Notes under the pieces: model-generated | Database searches by the model: none | What the model was told of the DNA's origin: nothing | What the model saw: only the letters and a program-made list of their open reading frames with translations | Shown here: positions 5,428-26,190 of the stretch, in pieces | Position numbering within the stretch: position 1 is the first letter of the stretch | Layout: every line of letters begins with the position of its first letter | Assembly (NCBI GenBank): GCA_037144235.1 | Contig: JBAWXC010000001.1 | Location: forward strand, 1 to 29,806 | Length of the DNA stretch: 29,806 bases | DNA from: Candidatus Tayloriibacteriota bacterium | GTDB taxonomy: Bacteria; Patescibacteriota; Minisyncoccia; Phycocordibacterales; PALSA-1337 | Reading direction: 5' to 3' | Translations under genes and position numbers: made by a program

Positions 5428-6627
5428 ATGAAACCTATCACCTATATTACCCGCGATATTGAACGTGCTCTTGGCGTGAAGCCATCTGCTACGTATCATA
5501 TCGTTACCAATACTTGTCCGTATTCCGAAGAAATAAAGAAGCAATACCCTGATTTGGTGACCCTGATTCCCGCTTCTACAAAATCACTCGGCACCGCTGA
5601 TCTGATCACTCAATACAAAGAAATCCACAAACCTGACGTGTCTGCATCTGATCTTCTTGTCTTCAAAAATACGGGCCGTGTCGAACCTGTCGCACAAGGA
5701 GCTGGTTGGCATCTCCTCAATCCAAAGGCATCTCTCGCAGATACGATCGAAAACAAACTCACTCAGGTTGAATGGCTCGGTGAACTCGGTAAAACATATC
5801 TCCCACGACATGCAATTGTAGAAGTCAAAAATCTTACGTGGACCAAAGAACCTTTCATCATCCAATGGAATCATGGATACACTGGCGGTGGTACACTCCT
5901 CATCAGTTCAGAACAAGAACTTCAAGCAATCAAACAAAAGTTTCCAATGCGCGTTGCACGTCGTACTGATTTTATTCGTGGTCCATCGTTTACCGTGAAT
6001 GTCGTTGTTGCGGCAAACAAAATTCTTGTTGGAAATATCAGTTATCAAATCACCGGAACACTTCCTTTTACAGACAATATGTTCTCAACCGTAGGCAATG
6101 ACTGGGGTCTCACTCATAGCCTCCTCAATGAAGAAGAAGTTGGCTATATCCAAGAGATGGCACACAAGATTGGTACCAAGATGAATATTGCAGGATGGCG
6201 TGGATTGTTCGGTATAGATGTGATTCGCGACGATGATAATAACAAAATATACCTGATAGAAATAAACGCTCGCCAACCAGCTTCAACAACTTTCGAATCA
6301 TTCTTGCAAGAAGAAAATCGTCGCCACGGTGTCACAGGAATCACCACATTTGAAGCTCATCTCAAAGCATTGCAAGGTCAGACTATTTCTGATGATCTCA
6401 TCCTCATCAATGACGGCGCACAAATCATACAACGTATCACCGCACAGACAACTTCTATTGTTCCTCAAAAAATAGCCGACCTCAATTCCAACGGATACAT
6501 CACCATATCGTACGCAAATACCATGATCAAAGAAGACCTCCTCCGTATCCAAAGTATGCAAGGCATCATGGAAACTCACACAAAATTCAATGCCCGGGGA
6601 AAGAAAATTCTTGATATACTTTCCTAA
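5428..6627 (+). CDS. ATP-grasp domain carboxylate-amine ligase of unknown specificity
   Basis: ENKLTQVEWL, PFIIQWNHGYTGGGT, FIRGPSFTVN, GWRGLFGIDVI and IYLIEINARQ (E-x-N-x-R metal/ATP motif). Confidence 0.88.
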   Translation: MKPITYITRDIERALGVKPSATYHIVTNTCPYSEEIKKQYPDLVTLIPASTKSLGTADLITQYKEIHKPDVSASDLLVFKNTGRVEPVAQGAGWHLLNPKASLADTIENKLTQVEWLGELGKTYLPRHAIVEVKNLTWTKEPFIIQWNHGYTGGGTLLISSEQELQAIKQKFPMRVARRTDFIRGPSFTVNVVVAANKILVGNISYQITGTLPFTDNMFSTVGNDWGLTHSLLNEEEVGYIQEMAHKIGTKMNIAGWRGLFGIDVIRDDDNNKIYLIEINARQPASTTFESFLQEENRRHGVTGITTFEAHLKALQGQTISDDLILINDGAQIIQRITAQTTSIVPQKIADLNSNGYITISYANTMIKEDLLRIQSMQGIMETHTKFNARGKKILDILS

Positions 6628-6635
6628 TACTATAT

Positions 6636-7406
6636 ATGAGTACTATTACCCTTTCGCCACAGGCACTTTCTATTATCGAAAAATATCTCCATTTTCAAGT
6701 TGGATCTGCTGTATGTTCTATTCCCTATTTCAACAACAAAACACTACGTTCACGCGCAGGACTTCGTGCATTGATCGGCAAAGGTAGTATCAAAGATATC
6801 ACCGATGAAGTTCACGCCTTCATGGTCAAACAACACATCTCACCTGAAACCATTTCAAGTGAAAGTCTCAAGAAATTACTCGTCGATATGAAGATTGGTA
6901 TCGATTGTTCTGCATTCACGTATTACGTTCTCGATGCAGAATTGGCACAAACACAACGAGGTTCACTTAAGTCACGCATTCATTTTATTCACAGCACAGG
7001 TATTATCGGCAACATACGTACTATGATGAGACCTATCGAAAATTGCGACGTGGCAACATTCGCTGATGATTCCAATAGTTCAATCGTTCCTATTTCTGAA
7101 GTCAAACCAGGAAACATGATCACTATGCTCGGTGGGCCAGATAGCATGAATCGTGATCATATTCTCGTCATTCATGCAGTTGATATACACGAAAACATTC
7201 CTCAAAAAATCTATTACTCACATACCATGGCATATCCAGAAGATGGTGTGTACGGCACAGGCATCAAACAAGGAACAATTTCAATTACTGATCCTGCGAA
7301 AGATATTATTGATCAAGAGTGGAATGAAAATGGAAAACATGGCATTGATCTTCCCCTCTTCACACGAGCACAAAAGTCTACCACTCAGCTCCGAAGACTA
7401 AAATAA
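6636..7406 (+). CDS. NlpC/P60 (papain-like) superfamily peptidase/amidase-like protein
   Basis: IPYF...GIDCSAFTYYVL (candidate catalytic Cys, codon 6906-6908) and downstream DHILVIH, in the order expected for NlpC/P60. No signal peptide seen. Confidence 0.65.
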   Translation: MSTITLSPQALSIIEKYLHFQVGSAVCSIPYFNNKTLRSRAGLRALIGKGSIKDITDEVHAFMVKQHISPETISSESLKKLLVDMKIGIDCSAFTYYVLDAELAQTQRGSLKSRIHFIHSTGIIGNIRTMMRPIENCDVATFADDSNSSIVPISEVKPGNMITMLGGPDSMNRDHILVIHAVDIHENIPQKIYYSHTMAYPEDGVYGTGIKQGTISITDPAKDIIDQEWNENGKHGIDLPLFTRAQKSTTQLRRLK

Positions 7407-7433: not shown

Positions 7434-7463
7434 TTGTTTCAGGCCTTATTTTCATGCTATTCT
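7434..7463 (+). promoter_or_regulatory. Promoter for mraY (TTGTTT-N18-TATTCT with TG extension)
   Basis: TGcTATTCT at 7455-7463 ends 6 nt before ATG 7470. Confidence 0.55.
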
Positions 7464-7469
7464 GTATAC

Positions 7470-8624
7470 ATGATAACTATCCTTCAAGGAACAGCTGATT
7501 TGGCTTATATTCTCGGTTTTTCCCTGATCGGGGCTGTTGTTGGTTTTCTCTGGGCACCACTTCTCAACCGAGTATTGTACAAATACAACATTATCAAAGG
7601 AGCAAAATCTGAACTCTCAGCTCTTGGTTCTCATGCTTACAAAGCAAATACCCCCGTCATGGGAGGTCTCTTGGTTATCATCACCGTCGCGGTCATTACG
7701 TATTTCTTGAATTGGAATCGCAGTTTTACATTCGTACCTGTCGGCGTGATGCTCTTGTCAGCCGCATTGGGTGCATTTGATGATCTTCTCCACATATATG
7801 GCTCTGAACGTCATTCTCGAAAACTCAAACATGTCTGGGCACTCATTCGAGTCCACAAAGATCTCAAGATGCGCATCTGGTATAGCTTCACATTACCATG
7901 GACTGTATTCAAGAGACTCTCAGTCTGGTTTGGTTCACGTCCCGGAAAAGGAGTATTTGTTCACGAAAAACTCATCCTTCAGTTTATTGCTGGATCACTC
8001 ACTGCATGGTGGATTTATGCCAAACTCGGACCTGCATGGCATTTTATTTATTTCCCTCATTTTTATATATTAGGCAACCTCGTTGGATTTGCTGACTGGA
8101 ATGCAGGATGGTTCATCATTCCTATTATCATTTTTATCGTCATGTTCACCGCAAATGCAGTTAACATTGCAGATGGTATGGATGGTCTTGCGGGAGGTAT
8201 GCTCATCATCACCTTTAGTGCACTCACACTCCTTTCATGGATCAACGGCTTTGGTGAAATTGCTATTTTGAACGCAACCACGGTTGGTGCACTGGTGGCG
8301 TATACGTATTTCAATATCAAACCTGCCCGCTTTATGATGGGAGATGTTGGCTCTCTAGGACTTGGTGCTCTTCTCGCCGTCAATGCAATGGCTATCGGGG
8401 AAGTAAGTTCCCTCTTATTCCTCGTCTTTATGTTCTATATCGAAGCTTTTTCAGTTGTTATACAAGTATTTTCAAAATACACATTCGGTCGTCGCATCTT
8501 CCGCATGGCACCACTTCATCACCACTTTGAACTCAAGGGCTGGAGTGAAGAAAAGACCGTCATGCGTTTCTGGGTAACTCATTTCTTGTTCGTCGTCTTT
8601 GGATTCTGGCTCGCTCTCCACTAA
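7470..8624 (+). CDS. mraY: Phospho-N-acetylmuramoyl-pentapeptide transferase
   Basis: HAYKANTPVMGG, GAFDD, NAVNIADGMDGL, MGDVGS and MAPLHHHFELKGWSEEK, with about ten hydrophobic helices. Start at ATG 7470 preferred over the TTG at 7434. Confidence 0.95.
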   Translation: MITILQGTADLAYILGFSLIGAVVGFLWAPLLNRVLYKYNIIKGAKSELSALGSHAYKANTPVMGGLLVIITVAVITYFLNWNRSFTFVPVGVMLLSAALGAFDDLLHIYGSERHSRKLKHVWALIRVHKDLKMRIWYSFTLPWTVFKRLSVWFGSRPGKGVFVHEKLILQFIAGSLTAWWIYAKLGPAWHFIYFPHFYILGNLVGFADWNAGWFIIPIIIFIVMFTANAVNIADGMDGLAGGMLIITFSALTLLSWINGFGEIAILNATTVGALVAYTYFNIKPARFMMGDVGSLGLGALLAVNAMAIGEVSSLLFLVFMFYIEAFSVVIQVFSKYTFGRRIFRMAPLHHHFELKGWSEEKTVMRFWVTHFLFVVFGFWLALH

Positions 8625-8625
8625 T

Positions 8626-9273
8626 ATGGACTATCTTCACTGGGATGAAAAAGTAATAACTAACTTCTCTGACATAGCAATTTCTGATTTGTATGCACGA
8701 GGATATGTCTTCACGCGCATCGGCAAAGGTGCGATGCAACAAACACGCTCATCACGTATCGATTTGTCAGCATTTGAACTCACGAGTGAAAATAGACGTA
8801 TCTTGAAAAAAGTCTCAGATCTTACTCTCAAAGAAAACCTTATTCCCTACGCAGGATATGATTTTACTATCGGCAAACTCGGCAAGGATTTTTATGACAC
8901 CAAGTTTGGTTCAGGAATTATGAGTGCTCAAAAGATCAAAGAAATGATGACTGATTCAGCAAAGAGCAACTTCACAACACTTATCACCTACGGCGTAACT
9001 GGTCATGTGATCGGATACGTCATCACGTACAAAAATAAAGATATAATGCATTATTCATATCCATTTTATGATCTCACTGCCTCAAAGGATACTGGCCTCG
9101 GCATGATGACTCAAGCTATTCAACACGCCAAAGAACAAGGTTTGAAATATATATATCTCGGCTCTCTCCAACGCCCGAGTGATACCTACAAACTCCAATT
9201 CAAAGGACTTGAATGGTTCGATGGAACTTCATGGAAAACAGATCTTGAAGAAGTAAAGAATATCTTGAAATAA
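8626..9273 (+). CDS. ATE/Bpt-like aminoacyl-tRNA-dependent transferase (GNAT-like fold), cysteine-free
   Basis: MDYL...LYARGY...SRIDLSAFELTSENRRILKK..DL matches the ATE_N pattern. YSYPFYD...GLGMM...A...GLKYIYLG...TYKLQF..LE...W matches ATE_C. ATG lies 1 nt after the mraY stop. Confidence 0.75.
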   Translation: MDYLHWDEKVITNFSDIAISDLYARGYVFTRIGKGAMQQTRSSRIDLSAFELTSENRRILKKVSDLTLKENLIPYAGYDFTIGKLGKDFYDTKFGSGIMSAQKIKEMMTDSAKSNFTTLITYGVTGHVIGYVITYKNKDIMHYSYPFYDLTASKDTGLGMMTQAIQHAKEQGLKYIYLGSLQRPSDTYKLQFKGLEWFDGTSWKTDLEEVKNILK

Positions 9274-9274
9274 C

Positions 9275-10693
9275 ATGTCTCAACCCCTCCCAAAACATGT
9301 CCACGTCATCGGTATCTGCGGTGTCGCCACCAGCGCTCTCGCAATCGCTTTCAAAGATGCCGGCGTCATCGTAACTGGTTCTGACAAAGGATTCTTTCCC
9401 CCTGTTTCAACAGAGCTAGAAAAACACAATATCTCTTTTTATGCAGGATGGCATCCAGAATTGATGATTAAAGACGGGGTCCCTGACGTCATTATTGTTG
9501 GCACCGCATCTGGTAGTAACAATCCTGAGACTATATACGCCAAAGAACATGCTATTCCTATGTATTCTTTCGCTGAAGCAATTGGCACATTCTTTTCCAA
9601 GAAAAATTCAATCGTCTGTGCAGGAACATGGGGCAAGACATCCTCATCGGCACTTCTTTCTTACATCCTTATCCATGCACAATTCAAACCAACGTATATG
9701 TTTGGCGGTGTTTCTCTTTCTCATGAAGCATCCGCTCAACTCACTGACAGTGACTGGAGTGTGTTCGAAGGTGATGAATACAAGAGTGGACCAACTGATC
9801 CAACTGCAAAATTCTTCTATTACAAACCGACTCACCTATTGTTGAGTGCGGTGTCATGGGATCATGCAGATCTGTATCCAACAGAAGAATCCTATTTTCA
9901 GATATTCAAAAAGCTTCTTGCGCAAATTCCCCAAGATAGTTTCATCGTCGGCTGCGCAGATCATATGGGTGCCATGAGTCTCTTGAATAATTTTACTGGC
10001 AAAAAAATCCTCTACGGCCACGAAGGAACAAAAGATGCTACCTATACCTACAGTAATGTAATCCAAACACAACATGGTCTCGATCTCGAAATCCAAAACC
10101 AAACCAATCATTGGCATATCCATTCCCCTATGTTAGGAACGTATCAAGCAGAAAATATTACTGGGTGTTTCGCTATGGCCATGGAACTCGGAGTAAGTCC
10201 GGAGAAAATTGTAGAGGCAATCGGTTCATTCAAGGGACTCAAACGTCGTCTCGAAAAACGCCTCGATGGTGACATATCTATATTCGACGATATTGCACAT
10301 TCTCCTGAAAAAGCTTCGTCTGTTCTCCATACTCTCCGTCAGATTTATGAAGGAAAAATCATTACTATATTCGAACCGAATATTGGCGGACGTGAGCGTG
10401 AATCTGCTGCAAAATATGATAATGCATTCAAAAACTCAGATGTCGTTATTATTCCTCGTCTCACCAAACTCAAAGTTGCACACGATGAACAAGAACAACC
10501 AATGGATGGATCTGCATTGGCAGATGTGATCAAACGTACTCACAATAATGTAGTGCACATAGACAACGATGAAGAACTCGTTTCATTCTTGAAATCACAT
10601 ACTACAAAAGGCGATGTGATCGCCTTTCTCGGAAGTCATGGGTTCAGAGGAATGATAGAGGAAACAGTGAAAATGTTAAATTTTCAAGGTTAA
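9275..10693 (+). CDS. mpl: Mur ligase of the Mpl/MurC group (Mpl-like murein peptide ligase)
   Basis: HVIGICG, VTGSDKGFFPPVST, AGTWGKT, EGDEY, KFFYYKP, WDHADLY, GLKRRLE, DDIAHSP and IFEP. The GICG, GSD..x.PP and KF..Y.P motifs resemble Mpl more than MurC. Confidence 0.75.
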   Translation: MSQPLPKHVHVIGICGVATSALAIAFKDAGVIVTGSDKGFFPPVSTELEKHNISFYAGWHPELMIKDGVPDVIIVGTASGSNNPETIYAKEHAIPMYSFAEAIGTFFSKKNSIVCAGTWGKTSSSALLSYILIHAQFKPTYMFGGVSLSHEASAQLTDSDWSVFEGDEYKSGPTDPTAKFFYYKPTHLLLSAVSWDHADLYPTEESYFQIFKKLLAQIPQDSFIVGCADHMGAMSLLNNFTGKKILYGHEGTKDATYTYSNVIQTQHGLDLEIQNQTNHWHIHSPMLGTYQAENITGCFAMAMELGVSPEKIVEAIGSFKGLKRRLEKRLDGDISIFDDIAHSPEKASSVLHTLRQIYEGKIITIFEPNIGGRERESAAKYDNAFKNSDVVIIPRLTKLKVAHDEQEQPMDGSALADVIKRTHNNVVHIDNDEELVSFLKSHTTKGDVIAFLGSHGFRGMIEETVKMLNFQG

Positions 10694-10762
10694 AGGTTAA
10701 AGTCCCCAAACCAAACGAAGATCTAGGTCTAATTGAAAATTTGACCTTTAACCTTGAAAATT
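10679..10762. repeat. Inverted repeat A of the TTTTCAAGGTTAAA family (23-bp arms, 22/23 match)
   Basis: AATTTTCAAGGTTAAAGGTTAAA (10679-10701) / TTTGACCTTTAACCTTGAAAATT (10740-10762). It lies between the convergent stops of mpl and the small Zn-ribbon gene. Confidence 0.9.
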
Positions 10763-10765
10763 GGC

Positions 10766-10939
10766 TTATTTTCCTTCATCAACAATCTCAGTCTTGACTG
10801 CCCCATCAGAAGCAATCTCTTTGATCGCGAGTGTCATACCGCAATGATTGCACTCGATCACCATACCAATGGCGAGATTCTGATATTTTGAAGTATCAAC
10901 AGTATTTTTACATTCAGGACATACACACGTTGTTTTCAT
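10766..10939 (-). CDS. LysW-like zinc-ribbon protein (57 aa; putative carrier protein) ending in -IVDEGK
   Basis: Below the length cutoff of the ORF track. Hand translation: MKTTCVCPECKNTVDTSKYQNLAIGMVIECNHCGMTLAIKEIASDGAVKTEIVDEGK. It has CPEC...G..I.C..CG..L spacing like LysW and a canonical promoter upstream. Confidence 0.8.
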   Translation of the reverse strand: MKTTCVCPECKNTVDTSKYQNLAIGMVIECNHCGMTLAIKEIASDGAVKTEIVDEGK

Positions 10940-10999
10940 AGATAAATAGATTAGTAGATAATGATGTGAATAAATAACAAAACGGCTATATAACCGTAC

Positions 11000-11033
11000 T
11001 TCACATAGTACCCAAAAAATAGTAGGATGACAA
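11000..11033. promoter_or_regulatory. Overlapping divergent sigma70-type promoters
   Basis: Minus strand: TTGTCA (11028-11033)-N17-TACTAT (11005-11010) toward the LysW-like gene. Plus strand: TTCACA (11000-11005)-N17-TAGGAT (11023-11028) toward the PLP enzyme. Confidence 0.6.
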
Positions 11034-11035
11034 TA

Positions 11036-11108
11036 TCAAGTTTCAAGGTTAAATTCCAAAGGTTAAATTATTTTTGACTTTAATTGAAAATTTAACCTTG
11101 AAAATTGA
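11036..11108. repeat. Inverted repeat B of the TTTTCAAGGTTAAA family
   Basis: TTTCAAGGTTAAATT (11041-11055) / AATTTAACCTTGAAA (11089-11103) is a perfect 15-bp pair, extendable to 19/20. It ends 6 nt before ATG 11115. Confidence 0.9.
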
Positions 11109-11114
11109 ACATTT

Positions 11115-11987
11115 ATGTCAACTCCCCTCGAATCATACCCTGAGCTTGCCCGAGCTATCGGCGTGCCAACTCTCTACTTCAAGCGAGATGATCTTCATGA
11201 ATATGGTTCTCACAAAGGCCGTTCCATTCCTGTCATGATAGATTTGTACTATGCATCTGGTGACAGAGAATTCGTCATCTCTTCTTCTGGAAATGCTGCC
11301 CTCGCCGCTGCTCTGTATATCAAAGAGCTTAACAATCGTTCAGATGAAAAAGCTTCTCTTGATATCCTTGTCGGTATCCATATCGCCCCACACAAGCTAG
11401 AAAAGCTCAAAAAGCTCGAGGACAAGTATATACGCATTTTGAGCAAAGAACGCCCTCTACAGGCCATTTTACAGGCTACAGACGAAGGTAAACGCAGCCT
11501 TCGACAGTCTACCGATGATACTGCCCTTATAGGGTACGAATCTCTCGCACAAGAGCTTCTCGATATCAAAAATCTCGGGGCTGTATTTATCGGGACTTCT
11601 TCAGGTACAACTGCTCAAGCACTCGCATCCTATTTCGCCACTCACAAACATCCAGTTCAAGTTCACATTGTACAAACATCTTCATGCCACCCTCTTTCTG
11701 ATACATATAGCGTATATGATGGACCAGAAGAACGTTCAATTGCCGATGCGATCGTAGACATTACTGCGCACAGAAAAAAATATCTCCTTCCTCTCATAGA
11801 AAAAACGGGAGGATATGGTTGGGTGGCAACCAATGAACAGATCGAAGCTGCTCAGACTATTGTTTGGGACAATGAACAACTCGAAATTTCTACGAACAGT
11901 GCCCTTTCAGTCGCAGGACTGATGCAAGCGGTCTATACCGGACGAGAAATCACCGGTGCAGTTGTGTGTATGATTTGTGGAGAGTGA
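11115..11987 (+). CDS. PLP-dependent enzyme, fold type II (threonine synthase/cysteine synthase/Ser-Thr dehydratase superfamily)
   Basis: LYFKRDDLHEYGSHKGR (Schiff-base Lys), SSSGNAALA, GTSSGTT (phosphate loop) and STNSALSVAG. Catalytic core only. Confidence 0.88.
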   Translation: MSTPLESYPELARAIGVPTLYFKRDDLHEYGSHKGRSIPVMIDLYYASGDREFVISSSGNAALAAALYIKELNNRSDEKASLDILVGIHIAPHKLEKLKKLEDKYIRILSKERPLQAILQATDEGKRSLRQSTDDTALIGYESLAQELLDIKNLGAVFIGTSSGTTAQALASYFATHKHPVQVHIVQTSSCHPLSDTYSVYDGPEERSIADAIVDITAHRKKYLLPLIEKTGGYGWVATNEQIEAAQTIVWDNEQLEISTNSALSVAGLMQAVYTGREITGAVVCMICGE

Positions 11988-11997
11988 AGAAATTTAC

Positions 11998-12453
11998 AAT
12001 TTTCAAGGTTAAAGGTTCAATTAATCACACAGTTGATTTTGATGAGCGAATTATCTTGGAGAAGATCAATAAGAGTTCACCTGCTTCTTTCCATAGAATG
12101 ACAAGATTGTCTCTATGACTAGGATTTGATGTAGCGATTAAGCGTAACCAATGCTTTGTCTCACGTATCTCTTTCTTGGCAATAGATACTTTGTGAATAA
12201 AATCTTTTTTACTTTCAGCTTCAATGGCTTCACAATAATTTGCCCCTATTGAGCCAGATGAACCAACAACTTGTTCAATCAATCTACAATTAACTGAATC
12301 TATTTTTATTGATCGAACAAAATGAATAACTTGCTCAGCAAATTTGGCAGTCCTGTCTTCCAAATCGTATTTCTGTTTTTTATTCTCCATAGATAATATG
12401 CCAGCAAAAAATTGCCTTAATTATTTATAATTTAGCCTTTAACCTTGAACATT
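11998..12453. repeat. Inverted repeat pair C bracketing the four-helix-bundle gene
   Basis: AATTTTCAAGGTTAAAGGTT (11998-12017) / AGCCTTTAACCTTGAACATT (12434-12453), 18/20 match, plus an extra TTTAACCTT unit at 12452-12460. Confidence 0.85.
12025..12390 (-). CDS. Four helix bundle protein (23S rRNA-IVS / Avd-like family)
   Basis: YDLEDRTAKFA...QVVGSSGSIGANYCEA..AESKKDFIHKVSIAKKEIRETKHWLRL...EAGELLLIF. Confidence 0.92.
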   Translation of the reverse strand: MENKKQKYDLEDRTAKFAEQVIHFVRSIKIDSVNCRLIEQVVGSSGSIGANYCEAIEAESKKDFIHKVSIAKKEIRETKHWLRLIATSNPSHRDNLVILWKEAGELLLIFSKIIRSSKSTV

Positions 12454-12459
12454 TAACCT

Positions 12460-13779
12460 TTATAGACCTCTCACCGCTTTCACAAACCTTTCCCCTCTTT
12501 CCTTACGTGAACGGTCGAAACCACCAGCTTCAAATCCTGGACTAAAAAGTACTTTGTCACCTGGCTGCGCATGTTCATACGTAAGAATAGTTGCTTCTTC
12601 AAGAGATTGAACTGTAGTGATCTTTACATCTTGAATGGATTGAAGGGTGAGACGTTCCTTCATCGTGCCACTTCCTGGGAGAAGAATGACTTCCTTTACA
12701 TGTGTAGGTAACAAACCGTACAACACTCCATATTCACATCCTGTATCTACCCCACCAAATACGAGAATAGTATTTTGGGCTGATCCAAAAGTTTGTACTG
12801 CTGACTCAGTCGAATATGAACATATCGAAGCTGTGTCATTGTAGAACTCAATATGTTTTACCTTTTTGATAAATTCAAGTCTTCCCTTAAGTGCTTTCCA
12901 TGATTCGAATAGAGACTGAGCTGTTTCATCAGGAACTTTGAATAATCGTGCAGTCTGAAATGCGAGCGCAGCATTGTCACGATCATGTGAAGCACGAGCA
13001 TTGGGCAACCATGCTTCAGGGACCAACGATCTCTTGGTACGCAACATCTTTGCTTTGGGCTGGAATTTCATGCGATGTGTTGCATCGATCACTTCATCAG
13101 AAGCAACGATGAAATTGTTGTACGTCTGATATGTCACAATCTCAAACGGATTGGTGAAGTATGCTCCCTTTGGTGGAATAGTCGTGAATATTGCCACGTG
13201 CGGACTGATACGCATCTCGAACAATTCTTTCATGATCAGATCGACGATGCGAATGAGAATAATGTCTCCGCTTTTTGCCTTTTTGAGATGTGACAACGTG
13301 CCCAGAGCTGTCTCTGGATCAATCACAAAGAATCCCTGCCCTTCATGTGCATCACATGCACTCTGGAGCAATGGTTCGAGCATAGAGACAACCGTCGCCT
13401 TGCCACATGACCCCATCACACCTACGACGGTAAGTGGTGGAGCGAGTTTGAAGAATAATGTTTCTGGATATTCAATCTGTATCTTTTTTTCTTGAGCAAC
13501 TTTGAGGAAACGAGAGGTGCGTGGATATTCATGCGAAAGGATGATGAGATCCATATCGAGAAGATCGTCCGCAGGGATAGAACCGCACACATAGTTTGCC
13601 AAGCCGATTGAACGCAAGAATACGAGATGATTTTTGAGACGTGCTTCACTGCGCACATCATACACAGCCACCAAAGCACCTGCTTTTATCAGGAATTTGA
13701 TGTCAGTGATCATTTCTCCATGGGGACCAAGGCCGATCACAGCCACACGTTTTCCTTTGAAATAGTCCCGGGAAGTCAT
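12460..13779 (-). CDS. murD: MurD-like ligase with degenerate catalytic motifs
   Basis: GKRVAVIGLG, LIILS, GVMGSCGKATV, WKALKGRLEF, FYND and VLFSPG...ERGERF give the MurD architecture, but several key motifs are substituted. Confidence 0.8.
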   Translation of the reverse strand: MTSRDYFKGKRVAVIGLGPHGEMITDIKFLIKAGALVAVYDVRSEARLKNHLVFLRSIGLANYVCGSIPADDLLDMDLIILSHEYPRTSRFLKVAQEKKIQIEYPETLFFKLAPPLTVVGVMGSCGKATVVSMLEPLLQSACDAHEGQGFFVIDPETALGTLSHLKKAKSGDIILIRIVDLIMKELFEMRISPHVAIFTTIPPKGAYFTNPFEIVTYQTYNNFIVASDEVIDATHRMKFQPKAKMLRTKRSLVPEAWLPNARASHDRDNAALAFQTARLFKVPDETAQSLFESWKALKGRLEFIKKVKHIEFYNDTASICSYSTESAVQTFGSAQNTILVFGGVDTGCEYGVLYGLLPTHVKEVILLPGSGTMKERLTLQSIQDVKITTVQSLEEATILTYEHAQPGDKVLFSPGFEAGGFDRSRKERGERFVKAVRGL

Positions 13780-22419: not shown

Positions 22420-25400
22420 TTATTTACCCCAGTTATACAACAATATTGAGAAATCAACCGCATTTACTTTTCCATCTTTATTGATATCAACTGATGGATT
22501 ACTAAATGGTGATTTCGTCTTCCAGAAATACAACAATATTGAGAAATCTATAGAATTGACCTTACCATCTCGATTGAAATCCGCCTTGTTACCAGCTTTG
22601 ACTTGTCCGAATATTCCAAATTTTGAGAAATGATTTACGGTAGCAGTAAGAATCTTGGTGTACGTATCGAGAGTTGTAGGTAATACTTCCCATTTCTTTG
22701 TCTTCTCATTGTACCAATATACCTTCAAGGTATTTTCGATCAGACCATTGATCTGAGCGTTATTATACTTGAATGTGAGAGTTATAGGTTGACTGAATTG
22801 AGTCTGATTATTTGAAGACTTGATATCGAAAACCATGTTTGCCGCTTCCAAAAGACCCGGATTTACTGGGACAACAGGTTTCGTAGGATTATTCTCGACT
22901 ATAGGAGTAACGGTAATAACAGATGGTGTCGAAATTGTATTTTGACTCACTGCAACTGTCAGTGTTCCACCGAGAACTGTAGTAGCTTTTACGGTACCTG
23001 CTTGATTGGAATCAAATTTCGTAGAACCAACCGTAGCCACTGTTACAGGAACTGCGTATATATCACTATTGGTATTGGTTGAAACCGGTGCTCCACTTGA
23101 TCCACTACCACCCCCACCACCTCCACCACCACCACTATTTCCTCCAGTATTTGTTGGAGCTGTCGCAGTAAATGATCTATATGATATAGAACTTTCCGTT
23201 CCGAAATATGCAATTACCTTGAAGTAATAAGTGCCCGCATTTGGAACGGTCGCCGTAAGAGTTGTATTGAAATCTTGTCCAGCATTTATATATTTTGCAG
23301 CGACTGCGTCGAATACATTATGACCACTTCCACATGGATCATTGAGATCAGAGACAACACACCATTGATATTGATATTCATTACCACTCAAACCTTCGTT
23401 GGTTATAGTTATATTTGCAGATATATTTGGAGTTACTGTATTTGAAATATTATTTATAATAACCTGAGCAGGTGTAGTCACTACAGTCCAATAATCATTT
23501 CCTGGAAGAGTCTTACCAGTCTCTACGTTTGCAGAGAAAACAGTCTCCCATGTACCTGCTGGAGCATTTCCTGGTGTTGTATATGAATAACTATATGTTC
23601 CAGTAGCAACACGTGTCATGGCTACATTGTTTGCAATTATGTTACGAGATGGATCGTAAACAACGACAGTTGGCAAACTGAGAGAGTCTGTGAGTGTGCC
23701 GTTGTATATTGTATTAACAGTAGCAAGATAATTACCTCCAGCAACCACACTACCGAAATCAGATGTAGTAACTGTCCATGGTGATGCAGAAGAAAGTGTG
23801 AGTGATGTGAGTGTTCTAGTTGCAGAGTTCCAAATATCTGTTGCTAAATTTCCAGCTGAAGAAAGTGTTCTTGTGCTATATGACCAGACATTAGCTGGGA
23901 TAGAAGCAACACTAGCTACGAGAGAACTGAGCGTTGAACCGAGTGAACTAGAAGCTGCAAGGACATTTGCATTGGTTGTATTGATATTGGTATTAGCTGT
24001 AGCAAGAGTTGCGCCGAGTGACGATGAAGCATTACTCAACTGAGTACTGAGGGCTGCAATATCAGTCCATGTAATAGTATCAGTCTTGGTTTTGATGCCG
24101 GTAACATTTGTCCAATCAATCGTATCTGTCTTTGTTTTAATACCAGTGACATCTCCCCATGCAATAGTATCAGTCTTAGCTTTGATCAAACCATTTGAAG
24201 TAACGAGACCTGTGACATCAGACCAGGCAATACTATCTGTCTTGGTTTTGATAGCTGATATATTACTTGTACCATTTTCTGTGATGAGAGTGGCCGCATT
24301 TGCTTTAACTGTTGTGACGTCTGACCAGTTGATGGTGTCGGTTTTTGCTTTAACAGCGAGAGTGATAGCAGCAAGTGAGGTTGAGGCGAGGTCGGTGTGT
24401 GCATTAATTGAAGAGATAGCTGAGGCAACCTGAGAATCTGTGTGACTATTAACCGCTGTTGTTCCAGCATTGATACTGGCAGCCAAACTAGATGAAGCAT
24501 TTAGAACATTCGCAGCTGTAGCCAAGGAACCCGAAGTCAATGATGCATCAGTTAGGTTACGTGTTGCATATGACCAGACATCTGAAGCTGTTAGAGTTGA
24601 ACCAACTGAGGTTAGAGTCCTCGTGCTATTTGCCCATACATCTGCAACCAACGTGCCGAACGTGGTAAGCGAACGACTACCTGATGACCAAACTGCAAGA
24701 GGAATAGTTGAAGCAAGAGAAGTTGAAGCGGTGAGCACTGTTGCATCAGTATGGTTGTTGATAGTTGAAATACCAGTTGTAAATTGTGAATCTGTATGAC
24801 TGTTAATAGCCGTAATAGCTGAAACAACTTGTGAGTTGGTATTTGTATTTACGTTAGTGGTTTCAGTAGTAATTGCTGAACCAAGTGAACTCGAAGCCGC
24901 AAGGACATTTGCATTGGTTGTATTGATATTGGTATTAGCTGTAGCAAGAGTTGCGCCGAGTGATGAGGATGCATTACTCAACTGAGTACTGAGTGCTGCA
25001 ATATCTGCCCAAGCAATAGTATCAGTCTTGGTTTTGATACCTGTCACATCAGACCAGTTGATAGTGTCAGTCTTGGTTTTGATACCAGTGACATCAACCC
25101 AGGCAATGGTGTCTGTCTTAGCTTTGATTTGACCTGAAGTTGTAACGAGGCCAGTAATATCAGACCAGGCAATACTGTCTGTCTTGGTTTTGATAGCTGA
25201 AATATTGCCTGTACCAATTTCGGTGATGAGGGTGGCTACGTTTGCTTTGACTGTTGTCACGTCTGACCAGTTGATGGTGTCGGTCTTGGTTTTGACGGCA
25301 AGAGTGATAGCAGCAAGTGATGTCGAGGCAAGGTCAGTGTGTGCATTAATTGAGGAAATGGCTGAGGCGACTTGTGAGTTGGTGTTTGTATTTACATTCG

Positions 25401-26190
25401 CAGTTTCAGTAGTAATTGCAGACGCAAGTGACGATGAAGCACTTGTCACGTCAGACTGTACTGCAAGTGATCCTGAATTGAGACCTGCACCAGTGAGAGT
25501 ACGTGTCGTTGCACTCCAAACATCAGTTGCCAAGGTTCCGAAGGTGGTGAGGGAGCGTGTACCAGCAGACCAAACCGCTGTTGCAATATCTGATACCAAG
25601 GTACCAAAACTCGTCAATGTACGACCTGTATAATTCCATACGAGAGATGGTAATGATGAAGCCAAAGATGAAGAAGCGTCTACAACTGTTGCCGCAATAG
25701 AACTTGAAGCGTTACCGACAACTATATTTGTATTAGCATTCACAACTGAGGCAATAGATGAAGTCGCAGAACTATTCCAGACACTATTTGCAATATCTGT
25801 AGTTGAAGCACTGACATATCCAATCGTAAAAGTCTTGTCCAAGTTAGCCAGATCACCTCCCGCTACACTTCCACATGTCATGGTAGCTGGCCAGATACCC
25901 TGAGCTGTTAATGTTGTCGTACTGTAATAATGCCAACCAGTAGATAAGGCTGTCATAGGAACACTCGAAGCTACGATACTATTTGAAGGATTGTAAATAG
26001 TTATGGTACAAGGAGAAGTCGTAGCAACCAAGTTATCGTCATACACGAACTCACCTATTATGATCGTATCACCAGGAGCATATTTGTTTGTAGCGGCATG
26101 AACATGAGCCAATCCAATAAGGCCAAAAAAAATACATGCGCTTATACACAAAAATATACCGCATGTGTTTTTGTATACATTTCTAATCAT
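22420..26190 (-). CDS. Large secreted Ser/Thr-rich repeat protein (1256 aa) with C-terminal dockerin (paired EF-hand) domain
   Basis: Signal peptide ending HVHA, ten K[TA]KTD[TS]IxW repeats, VWxxxxRxLT repeats and a Gly linker. C-terminal ADFNRDGKVNSIDFSILL / VDINKDGKVNAVDFSILL. Confidence 0.85.
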   Translation of the reverse strand: MIRNVYKNTCGIFLCISACIFFGLIGLAHVHAATNKYAPGDTIIIGEFVYDDNLVATTSPCTITIYNPSNSIVASSVPMTALSTGWHYYSTTTLTAQGIWPATMTCGSVAGGDLANLDKTFTIGYVSASTTDIANSVWNSSATSSIASVVNANTNIVVGNASSSIAATVVDASSSLASSLPSLVWNYTGRTLTSFGTLVSDIATAVWSAGTRSLTTFGTLATDVWSATTRTLTGAGLNSGSLAVQSDVTSASSSLASAITTETANVNTNTNSQVASAISSINAHTDLASTSLAAITLAVKTKTDTINWSDVTTVKANVATLITEIGTGNISAIKTKTDSIAWSDITGLVTTSGQIKAKTDTIAWVDVTGIKTKTDTINWSDVTGIKTKTDTIAWADIAALSTQLSNASSSLGATLATANTNINTTNANVLAASSSLGSAITTETTNVNTNTNSQVVSAITAINSHTDSQFTTGISTINNHTDATVLTASTSLASTIPLAVWSSGSRSLTTFGTLVADVWANSTRTLTSVGSTLTASDVWSYATRNLTDASLTSGSLATAANVLNASSSLAASINAGTTAVNSHTDSQVASAISSINAHTDLASTSLAAITLAVKAKTDTINWSDVTTVKANAATLITENGTSNISAIKTKTDSIAWSDVTGLVTSNGLIKAKTDTIAWGDVTGIKTKTDTIDWTNVTGIKTKTDTITWTDIAALSTQLSNASSSLGATLATANTNINTTNANVLAASSSLGSTLSSLVASVASIPANVWSYSTRTLSSAGNLATDIWNSATRTLTSLTLSSASPWTVTTSDFGSVVAGGNYLATVNTIYNGTLTDSLSLPTVVVYDPSRNIIANNVAMTRVATGTYSYSYTTPGNAPAGTWETVFSANVETGKTLPGNDYWTVVTTPAQVIINNISNTVTPNISANITITNEGLSGNEYQYQWCVVSDLNDPCGSGHNVFDAVAAKYINAGQDFNTTLTATVPNAGTYYFKVIAYFGTESSISYRSFTATAPTNTGGNSGGGGGGGGGSGSSGAPVSTNTNSDIYAVPVTVATVGSTKFDSNQAGTVKATTVLGGTLTVAVSQNTISTPSVITVTPIVENNPTKPVVPVNPGLLEAANMVFDIKSSNNQTQFSQPITLTFKYNNAQINGLIENTLKVYWYNEKTKKWEVLPTTLDTYTKILTATVNHFSKFGIFGQVKAGNKADFNRDGKVNSIDFSILLYFWKTKSPFSNPSVDINKDGKVNAVDFSILLYNWGK
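23939..25377. repeat. Intragenic direct duplication (~500-bp copies, 942-bp period)
   Basis: About 23939-24435 aligns to about 24881-25377 at a constant 942-bp offset; e.g. CAAGGACATTTGCATTGGTTGTATTGATATTGGTATTAGCTGTAGCAAGAGTTGCGCCGAGTGA is in both copies. Confidence 0.9.

Follow-up and report, generated by a model that had tools for sequence, protein, structure and literature searches.

Genes and features of the locus

The window, i.e., the whole stretch of 29,806 nucleotides that was analysed, belongs to a genome of 619 kb that is 87% complete. It codes, in this order, for an ATP-grasp ligase (5428-6627, forward strand), a protein of 256 residues (6636-7406, forward), MraY (7434-8624, forward), an ATE/FemX-like protein (8599-9273, forward), a MurC/Mpl-like Mur ligase (9275-10693, forward), a mini-protein of 57 residues (10766-10939, reverse strand), a PALP-fold PLP enzyme (11115-11987, forward), a 23S-rRNA-IVP four-helix-bundle protein (12025-12390, reverse) and a MurD-like ligase (12460-13779, reverse). 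The mini-protein is referred to below by its proposed function, as the carrier. Its gene is convergent with that of the MurC/Mpl-like ligase and divergent from that of the PLP enzyme, the sole PALP gene found in the genome. MraY is the sole GT4 gene found, the remaining Mur ligases of the genome are MurE and MurF, and Ddl and Alr are also present. This is thus the only precursor pathway of the organism.

A canonical promoter had been attributed to the carrier gene in a sequence-only reading of this DNA. This has to be toned down to promoter-like: upstream of the gene, at 11005-11046 (reverse strand), there are two overlapping sigma-70-like sites (TTGTCA-17-TACTAT and TTGAAA-16-TACTAT), each of which matches at 9 of 12 positions, and the DNA is AT-rich. 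Between these sites and the start codon, the 5' leader contains a terminator-like hairpin (10982-10997, reverse strand; a 6-bp stem followed by a T-run), which could be an attenuator or a leader structure. A 23-nt inverted repeat with 96% complementarity (10679-10762) separates the convergent stop codons of the MurC-like and carrier genes and is likely a bidirectional terminator. The 23S-IVP gene, flanked by the PLP gene and the MurD-like gene, occurs in only 3 of 80 related loci and lies among TTTCAAGGTTAAA-type inverted repeats (10679-10762 and 11036-11113). For these reasons, it looks like an insertion into the module that is specific to this lineage. Sampled sequence words of the locus were absent from both of two tiny metatranscriptomes from the source sample.

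A zinc-ribbon mini-protein ending in lysine

Re-reading of 10766-10939 confirmed the 57-residue open reading frame of the sequence-only reading, with its CPEC motif (residues 7-10), its CNHC motif (residues 30-33) and its IVDEGK end. The predicted pI is 5.1, and a variable linker precedes the invariant tail. The open reading frame is a genuine gene, well past chance. A word-indexed search returned 249 protein clusters of homologues at approximately 65-85% identity, all from Patescibacteria (with Paceibacteria or Taylorbacteria labels), and a pattern scan placed relatives in 299 species-level genomes. An exhaustive search among 50%-identity representatives gave 45 matches.

Conservation is concentrated at the C-terminus. 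In 33 aligned close homologues, IVDEGK is invariant as the last six residues, while the linker before it varies. When the alignment is extended to 37 mini-proteins, down to 30% identity, the invariant positions are the terminal lysine, the four cysteines and a few core residues, and the tails read IVDEGK or IVEEEK. The terminal lysine singled out by the sequence-only reading is thus conserved across all 37 representatives. More distant copies retrieved from genomes end in LIEEEK, LLVEK, LMIEK, LYVQK, TNLGK or VDEEK, so that the final lysine alone is universal, and each PALP-linked member that was examined has lysine as its C-terminal residue. One copy (L104:3913-4083, reverse strand, in genome G213) has lost all four zinc-binding cysteines but keeps a beta-hairpin pattern and a tail ending in DYLLVEK; its gene is head-to-head with a PLP gene.

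Two kinds of matches were not included in the family. A LysW-like match in genome G208 (L100) is a different zinc ribbon, with DDFF as its C-terminal residues and without module genes in its vicinity, and the large multi-ribbon proteins P0134, P0147 and P0163 were judged to be generic zinc-ribbon repeats.

Relation to LysW

LysW and related amino-group carrier proteins bind the amine of their substrate through the gamma-carboxyl group of a C-terminal glutamate, and they are loaded by an ATP-grasp enzyme (LysX or ArgX). In terms of polarity, LysW offers a carboxylate to the amine of the substrate. The best Pfam and NCBIfam matches of the single carrier sequence are LysW models, both below threshold (PF21344: E 5.6e-4, 19.9 bits, cut-off 27; carrier_LysW_Arch: E 5.4e-4). 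Many homologues carry a precomputed PF21344 match. The family profile (A2), when compared to PDB sequences, selects two solved LysW chains first (5k2m_E at 8e-7 and 3wwl_A at 1.9e-5), which bears out the LysW-likeness noticed initially; the next zinc ribbon follows at 3e-3, and those of RNA polymerase and the ribosome at 0.1 or worse.

The carrier shares with the LysW/ArgW proteins that work with LysX/ArgX (Thermus, Sulfolobus and Thermococcus, and the AmCPs of Streptomyces) a homologous zinc-ribbon globule of about 55 residues (CPxC...CxxCG), and in both cases a variable linker leads to an attachment motif that is invariant at the C-terminus, with an ATP-grasp enzyme and a PLP enzyme encoded alongside. 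LysW ends in EDWGE and the carrier in lysine, so that the gamma-carboxyl attachment site of LysW is missing. The loader is of the RimK/LysX type for LysW and an ATP-grasp_3 protein (PF02655, PurK/Lal-like) here; the PLP partner is the aminotransferase LysJ for LysW and a fold-type II enzyme here; and the context is lysine or arginine biosynthesis for LysW and peptidoglycan precursor synthesis here.

Kinases, reductases, aminotransferases and carboxypeptidases of the LysZ, LysY, LysJ and LysK types were found neither among the 24 scanned open reading frames of the window nor in the module neighbourhoods of other lineages. The statement that the window lacks a lysX/Z/Y/J/K set therefore holds for these 24 frames; 1-1755, 1939-2214 and 22420-26190 lie outside the scan. 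RimK-like matches in the window's genome are confined to Ddl and one graspetide-type maturase on another contig. Three defining features of LysW systems are thus missing (the terminal glutamate, a LysX-type ligase and LysZ/Y/J/K partners), and the carrier is not a canonical LysW.

Graspetide-type maturases make side-chain amide bonds between lysine and glutamate or aspartate. One MvdC/MvdD-like maturase of this type is encoded on contig C43 of genome G000 (L109:1828-2820, reverse strand), beside alanine racemase and MurE, and scores 196 bits against TIGR04187, which is under the cut-off. A graspetide-like macrolactam within the carrier tail was considered and rejected, because tails of the LYVQK type have no conserved acidic partner and the maturase is unlinked.

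A conserved module in or beside the murD slot

Linkage was analysed in 301 evenly sampled Patescibacteria genomes. An ortholog of the PALP gene occurs in 23 of these, which belong to 12 GTDB families, and all 23 have a mini-ORF ending in lysine within 1.3 kb. This mini-ORF is directly adjacent to the PALP gene and divergent from it in 22 genomes. The ATP-grasp ortholog, which in the window is separated from the PLP gene, lies directly downstream of it in most other lineages: this holds for 15 of 21 distant loci, often with an overlap of 4-8 nt. It should be noted that synteny extends over the entire region in the 80 nearest loci, so that these carry little weight on their own and the distant members are the informative data. 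In two of the latter, L082 and L108, the carriers are only 37% and 36% identical to that of the window, and yet their genes are head-to-head with an operon that codes, in this order, for PALP, ATP-grasp_3, a protein of about 255 residues and MraY. The proposed linkage to PLP and ATP-grasp genes thus persists over at least 12 GTDB families, among which the order of the genes is rearranged.

These distributions bear on the simplest alternative, namely that the mini-protein is a generic zinc ribbon (RpoP, ribosomal or rubredoxin-like) which acts non-covalently and owes its synteny to phylogenetic inertia. JGI names many of the homologues RPC12/RpoP, and the synteny of the 80 closest loci would be expected. 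However, the carrier is present in only about 8-10% of the sampled Patescibacteria and is always beside the PLP gene despite differing gene orders, its tail lysine outlasts the zinc ligands, and LysW scores far better than the zinc ribbons of RNA polymerase and the ribosome. The PALP linkage, the varied gene orders and the lysine-ended copy devoid of cysteines largely refute this alternative, and we consider it very improbable.

Two layouts can be distinguished. In type A, which includes the window, the set comprises a divergent NlpC/P60-like protein, an ATE-like gene and an extremely divergent MurD-like ligase. In type B, the set is placed within the wall-gene (dcw) cluster, at the position of murD. 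An example is the single-contig genome G050, with the order MraY ... PgeF, NlpC/P60 (cytoplasmic, PF00877), MurD, carrier (reverse), PALP, ATP-grasp, FtsW, MurG, MurC, MurB. In this cluster (L087:1772-4098), genes for an amidohydrolase and a PgeF/YfiH-type protein (Cu-oxidase_4) are directly upstream of that for NlpC/P60; they may be further members of the module.

The 256-residue protein of the window is probably an NlpC/P60-like cysteine peptidase or amidase with a papain-like fold. It is without a Pfam match, and its structural neighbours are NlpC/P60 and CHAP clusters (TM 0.61-0.9). It has the DCS motif (in GIDCSAF) with a downstream histidine, is devoid of a signal peptide and is thus taken to be cytoplasmic. 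Orthologs are present in 15 of the 23 module genomes and in none of the 278 others. The type B counterpart, encoded just upstream of MurD, is a clear member of PF00877 and is also cytoplasmic. In genome G087 (family f69), a natural fusion of 695 residues (L092:9386-11473, reverse strand) joins a MurC/Mpl-like ligase (residues 3-413) to a C-terminal NlpC/P60-like domain. A 704-residue open frame at the NlpC/P60-like match in G148, from the same family, appears to be a similar fusion.

The MurD-like ligase of the window, which was placed by HMM scores, is very divergent (128 bits at a cut-off of 212) but retains a P-loop-like GSCGKAT. MurD is divergent in all module genomes. The type A ligases match TIGR01087 only at about 1e-15 to 1e-26 and the type B enzyme at about 1e-70, while values from 1e-90 to 1e-128 are usual in genomes that lack the module.

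The ATE-like gene codes for an ATE/Bpt- or FemX-like aminoacyl-tRNA transferase with a GNAT fold and had also been put forward as a partner of the carrier. This applies to type A, the only layout with which it is seen, and not to type B: it was not found in five type B genomes, nor in five genomes devoid of the module. In L108, a plain FemAB gene is present in the module neighbourhood.

The module consists of the carrier, the PLP enzyme, the ATP-grasp ligase, a cytoplasmic NlpC/P60 protein and a divergent MurD, and it is situated in or beside the murD slot. The most informative partners of the carrier, which are absent from the sequence-only reading, are the cytoplasmic NlpC/P60-like protein and the divergent MurD-like ligase; the missing route to D-glutamate (see below) is likewise absent from it.

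The PLP enzyme and the ATP-grasp ligase

The PLP enzyme is threonine-synthase-like. Its conserved residues are the PLP-binding Lys34, an SSSGNA loop (residues 56-61) in which Ser-Gly-Asn is invariant, S163-G164 and S259, and its phosphate loop is conserved as well. Against PDB sequences, it has only weak matches to the N-terminal part of threonine synthases. Threonine synthases are also the nearest folds of its structural model (pLDDT 95), closely followed by serine dehydratases, serine racemases and a PLP-dependent aspartate racemase, so that the fold search does not separate racemase, dehydratase and synthase chemistries. The predicted fold and the conserved residues are compatible with inversion at C-alpha, which is short of proof.

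PALP enzymes can bind the C-terminal tails of partner proteins; in the CysE-CysK complex, the C-terminal isoleucine of serine acetyltransferase plugs CysK. By analogy, the terminal lysine of the carrier might plug the active site of the PLP enzyme, making the mini-protein an inhibitor or a regulatory subunit. The strict head-to-head pairing with the PALP gene and the conserved free C-terminus would agree with this. Its globular domain is, however, homologous to a carrier family, and a simple inhibitor would need neither the co-transcribed ATP-grasp ligase, a typical carrier loader, nor the co-inherited peptidase. A purely regulatory role thus appears rather unlikely.

For the ATP-grasp ligase and the 256-residue protein, there were no matches among PDB sequences. 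The nearest folds of the ligase model (pLDDT 94) are PurK, PurT, PurD and L-amino-acid ligases, and LysX and RimK are absent from its top 50 fold neighbours. With PurK, PurT and L-amino-acid ligases, the activated group is a small carboxylate and the acceptor is an amine. An ortholog from a 100%-complete genome (G018:C4:260454-261608) contains one in-frame TGA; a sequencing error, pseudogenisation or recoding might account for it.

The type of ligase is relevant for the polarity of attachment. Many ATP-grasp enzymes, such as RimK and LysX, act on C-terminal carboxylates, and the sequence-only reading had offered as one alternative that residues are added to the C-terminus of the carrier. The ligase would then activate the alpha-carboxylate of the terminal lysine and add an amino acid through the amine of the latter. 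The alpha-amine of the substrate, on which the PLP enzyme depends, would be blocked in this case, and it would be unexplained why lysine in particular is invariant; moreover, neither by sequence nor by fold neighbours does the ligase belong to the RimK/LysX type. We regard this alternative as quite unlikely. As the PLP enzyme requires that the alpha-amine of its substrate is free, tethering of the latter has to involve a carboxyl group. In the tail, nothing but a side-chain amine is invariant. The most economical model is therefore attachment to the epsilon-amine of the terminal lysine, with a polarity inverted relative to LysW, and this would also fit a ligase that resembles PurK, PurT and L-amino-acid ligases rather than LysX/RimK.

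The missing route to D-glutamate

The genome of the window has neither an Asp_Glu_race (PF01177) nor an Aminotran_4 (PF01063, D-amino-acid transaminase) gene. Because Ddl, Alr, MurE and MurF are present, the supply of D-glutamate is the only unexplained precursor step. Glutamate racemase (PF01177) is found in 129 of the 301 sampled genomes, but in only one of the 23 PALP-positive ones, compared to 128 of the 278 others (one unpublished genome, G150, being counted among those without the module). Fisher's P for this depletion is about 3e-5, a value that overstates the association, because the module-bearing lineages are related and their genomes are not independent. In a wider set of 29 module genomes, two have PF01177 (G273 and G266). 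Both PF01177 and PF01063 are absent from five module genomes with at least 99% completeness, three of which are single contigs. In family f52, MurI occurs in a single genome (G119), which is devoid of the module and whose MurD is normal (5e-113). Its three relatives with the module have no MurI, and their MurD is of the divergent kind (about 1e-76). It should be noted that about half of the sampled Patescibacteria have neither MurI nor the module. The missing route to D-glutamate is thus not specific to module genomes, and other solutions must exist.

There is a precedent for such a gap. Xanthomonas has no glutamate racemase and no D-amino-acid transaminase; it has a divergent MurD2 and, encoded next to it, the ATP-dependent epimerase MurL, which came to light by complementation of the D-glutamate auxotroph E. 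coli WM335 (PMC8788868). As in the module genomes, peptidoglycan is made without either D-glutamate enzyme, a divergent MurD is beside novel genes, and the conversion from L to D is ATP-dependent, as proposed here for the module. The gene sets differ, the module being composed of carrier, PLP enzyme, ATP-grasp ligase and peptidase, of which the PALP, ATP-grasp and NlpC/P60 proteins belong to families other than MurL.

A proposed carrier-based route

Given that module-bearing Patescibacteria have no known route to D-glutamate and that the linkage of these genes is locked, the module probably marks a carrier-based step of cell-wall synthesis that has not been described so far. We are fairly confident that the mini-protein is a covalent carrier or a scaffold that works with the module enzymes in precursor synthesis. 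The best overall explanation, for which confidence and doubt are about balanced, is that it is a LysW-derived carrier (scaffold) of a peptidoglycan-precursor module which supplies residue 2 of the stem peptide.

The following scheme for D-glutamate is more tentative, and we place it at or slightly under the midpoint between belief and disbelief. The flexible tail of the carrier would present the epsilon-amine of its lysine as a tether. Via a carboxylate activated by the ATP-grasp ligase, a free amino acid would be joined to this amine. The amino acid is most likely glutamate, attached via its gamma-carboxyl group, which is a guess; in L-glutamate bound in this way, the alpha-amino acid end would stay accessible to the PLP enzyme for an L-to-D inversion of the tethered C-alpha. 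D-glutamate, either free or still tethered, would then be used by the MurD-like ligase. NlpC/P60 enzymes normally cut bonds between gamma-D-glutamate and a diamino acid. The module's member of this group would cut the gamma-D-glutamyl-lysine amide and thus regenerate the carrier. On balance, residue 2 of the stem peptide would be supplied via a carrier and at the expense of ATP.

The terminal lysine might alternatively be the substrate itself, on a pearlin-like scaffold. The PLP enzyme and the ATP-grasp ligase would then modify the protein-bound lysine, for example by beta-replacement on its epsilon-amine to yield a lysinoalanine-type diamino-diacid, the peptidase would release this product for position 3 of the stem peptide, and a ligase would re-add lysine. 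An invariant terminal lysine and a peptidase in the module are what one would expect in this case, and the PALP enzymes include amine-accepting beta-replacement enzymes; the type B enzyme gave a weak SbnA-family match. Against this, the genome has an ordinary MurE above the family cut-off, the linkage is to MurD and not to MurE, and the unexplained step is D-glutamate. In addition, NlpC/P60 enzymes cut gamma-glutamyl amides, not Gly-Lys or Glu-Lys alpha-peptide bonds. Such a use of the lysine seems fairly improbable.

It is tempting to extend the D-glutamate scheme one step further, so that part of the stem peptide would be built on the carrier instead of on UDP-MurNAc. ATE-like enzymes act on N-terminal aspartate or glutamate. 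Glutamate, gamma-tethered to the terminal lysine and epimerised there, might receive L-alanine from Ala-tRNA at its free alpha-amine by the action of the type A ATE-like enzyme, which would make for a protein-templated and partly tRNA-dependent precursor route. The fusion of an NlpC/P60-like domain to a MurC-like ligase in some relatives may be cited alongside. We consider this extension unlikely.

Precedents and significance

Individual elements of the favoured reading, a lysine-tethered carrier, have precedents elsewhere. In the CysO-CysM system of Mycobacterium, a small protein likewise works with a PALP-fold enzyme: the C-terminus of CysO enters the PLP enzyme and carries the product, and a peptidase releases it. 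CysO is, however, a beta-grasp (ThiS-like) protein with a Gly-Gly thiocarboxylate end and serves sulfur-transfer chemistry, whereas the carrier is a zinc ribbon that ends in lysine. D-aspartate ligase (Aslfm) and the graspetide maturases are ATP-grasp enzymes that join a side-chain carboxylate to the epsilon-amine of lysine, one of them in peptidoglycan synthesis. They use the stem peptide or the core of a ribosomal peptide as acceptor and not a LysW-like carrier, and the likeness to the module ligase is one of chemistry.

Literature searches on LysW-like carriers, on the supply of D-glutamate in Patescibacteria and on lysine-tailed carriers retrieved no description of the module. The most fitting description is a cell-wall synthesis module with a carrier that derives from LysW and has a lysine tail. 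Added by the present analysis are the split into types A and B, an NlpC/P60-like ortholog that is exclusive to module genomes, and a carrier that has lost its cysteines and kept its lysine.

If the proposal is true, LysW-type carrier metabolism would extend from lysine, arginine and secondary-metabolite synthesis to an essential step of wall synthesis, and its attachment chemistry would be reversed, with the carrier providing an amine instead of a carboxylate. It would also explain how residue 2 of the stem peptide is supplied in many ultra-small CPR bacteria with complete pathways for peptidoglycan and neither a glutamate racemase nor a D-amino-acid transaminase.
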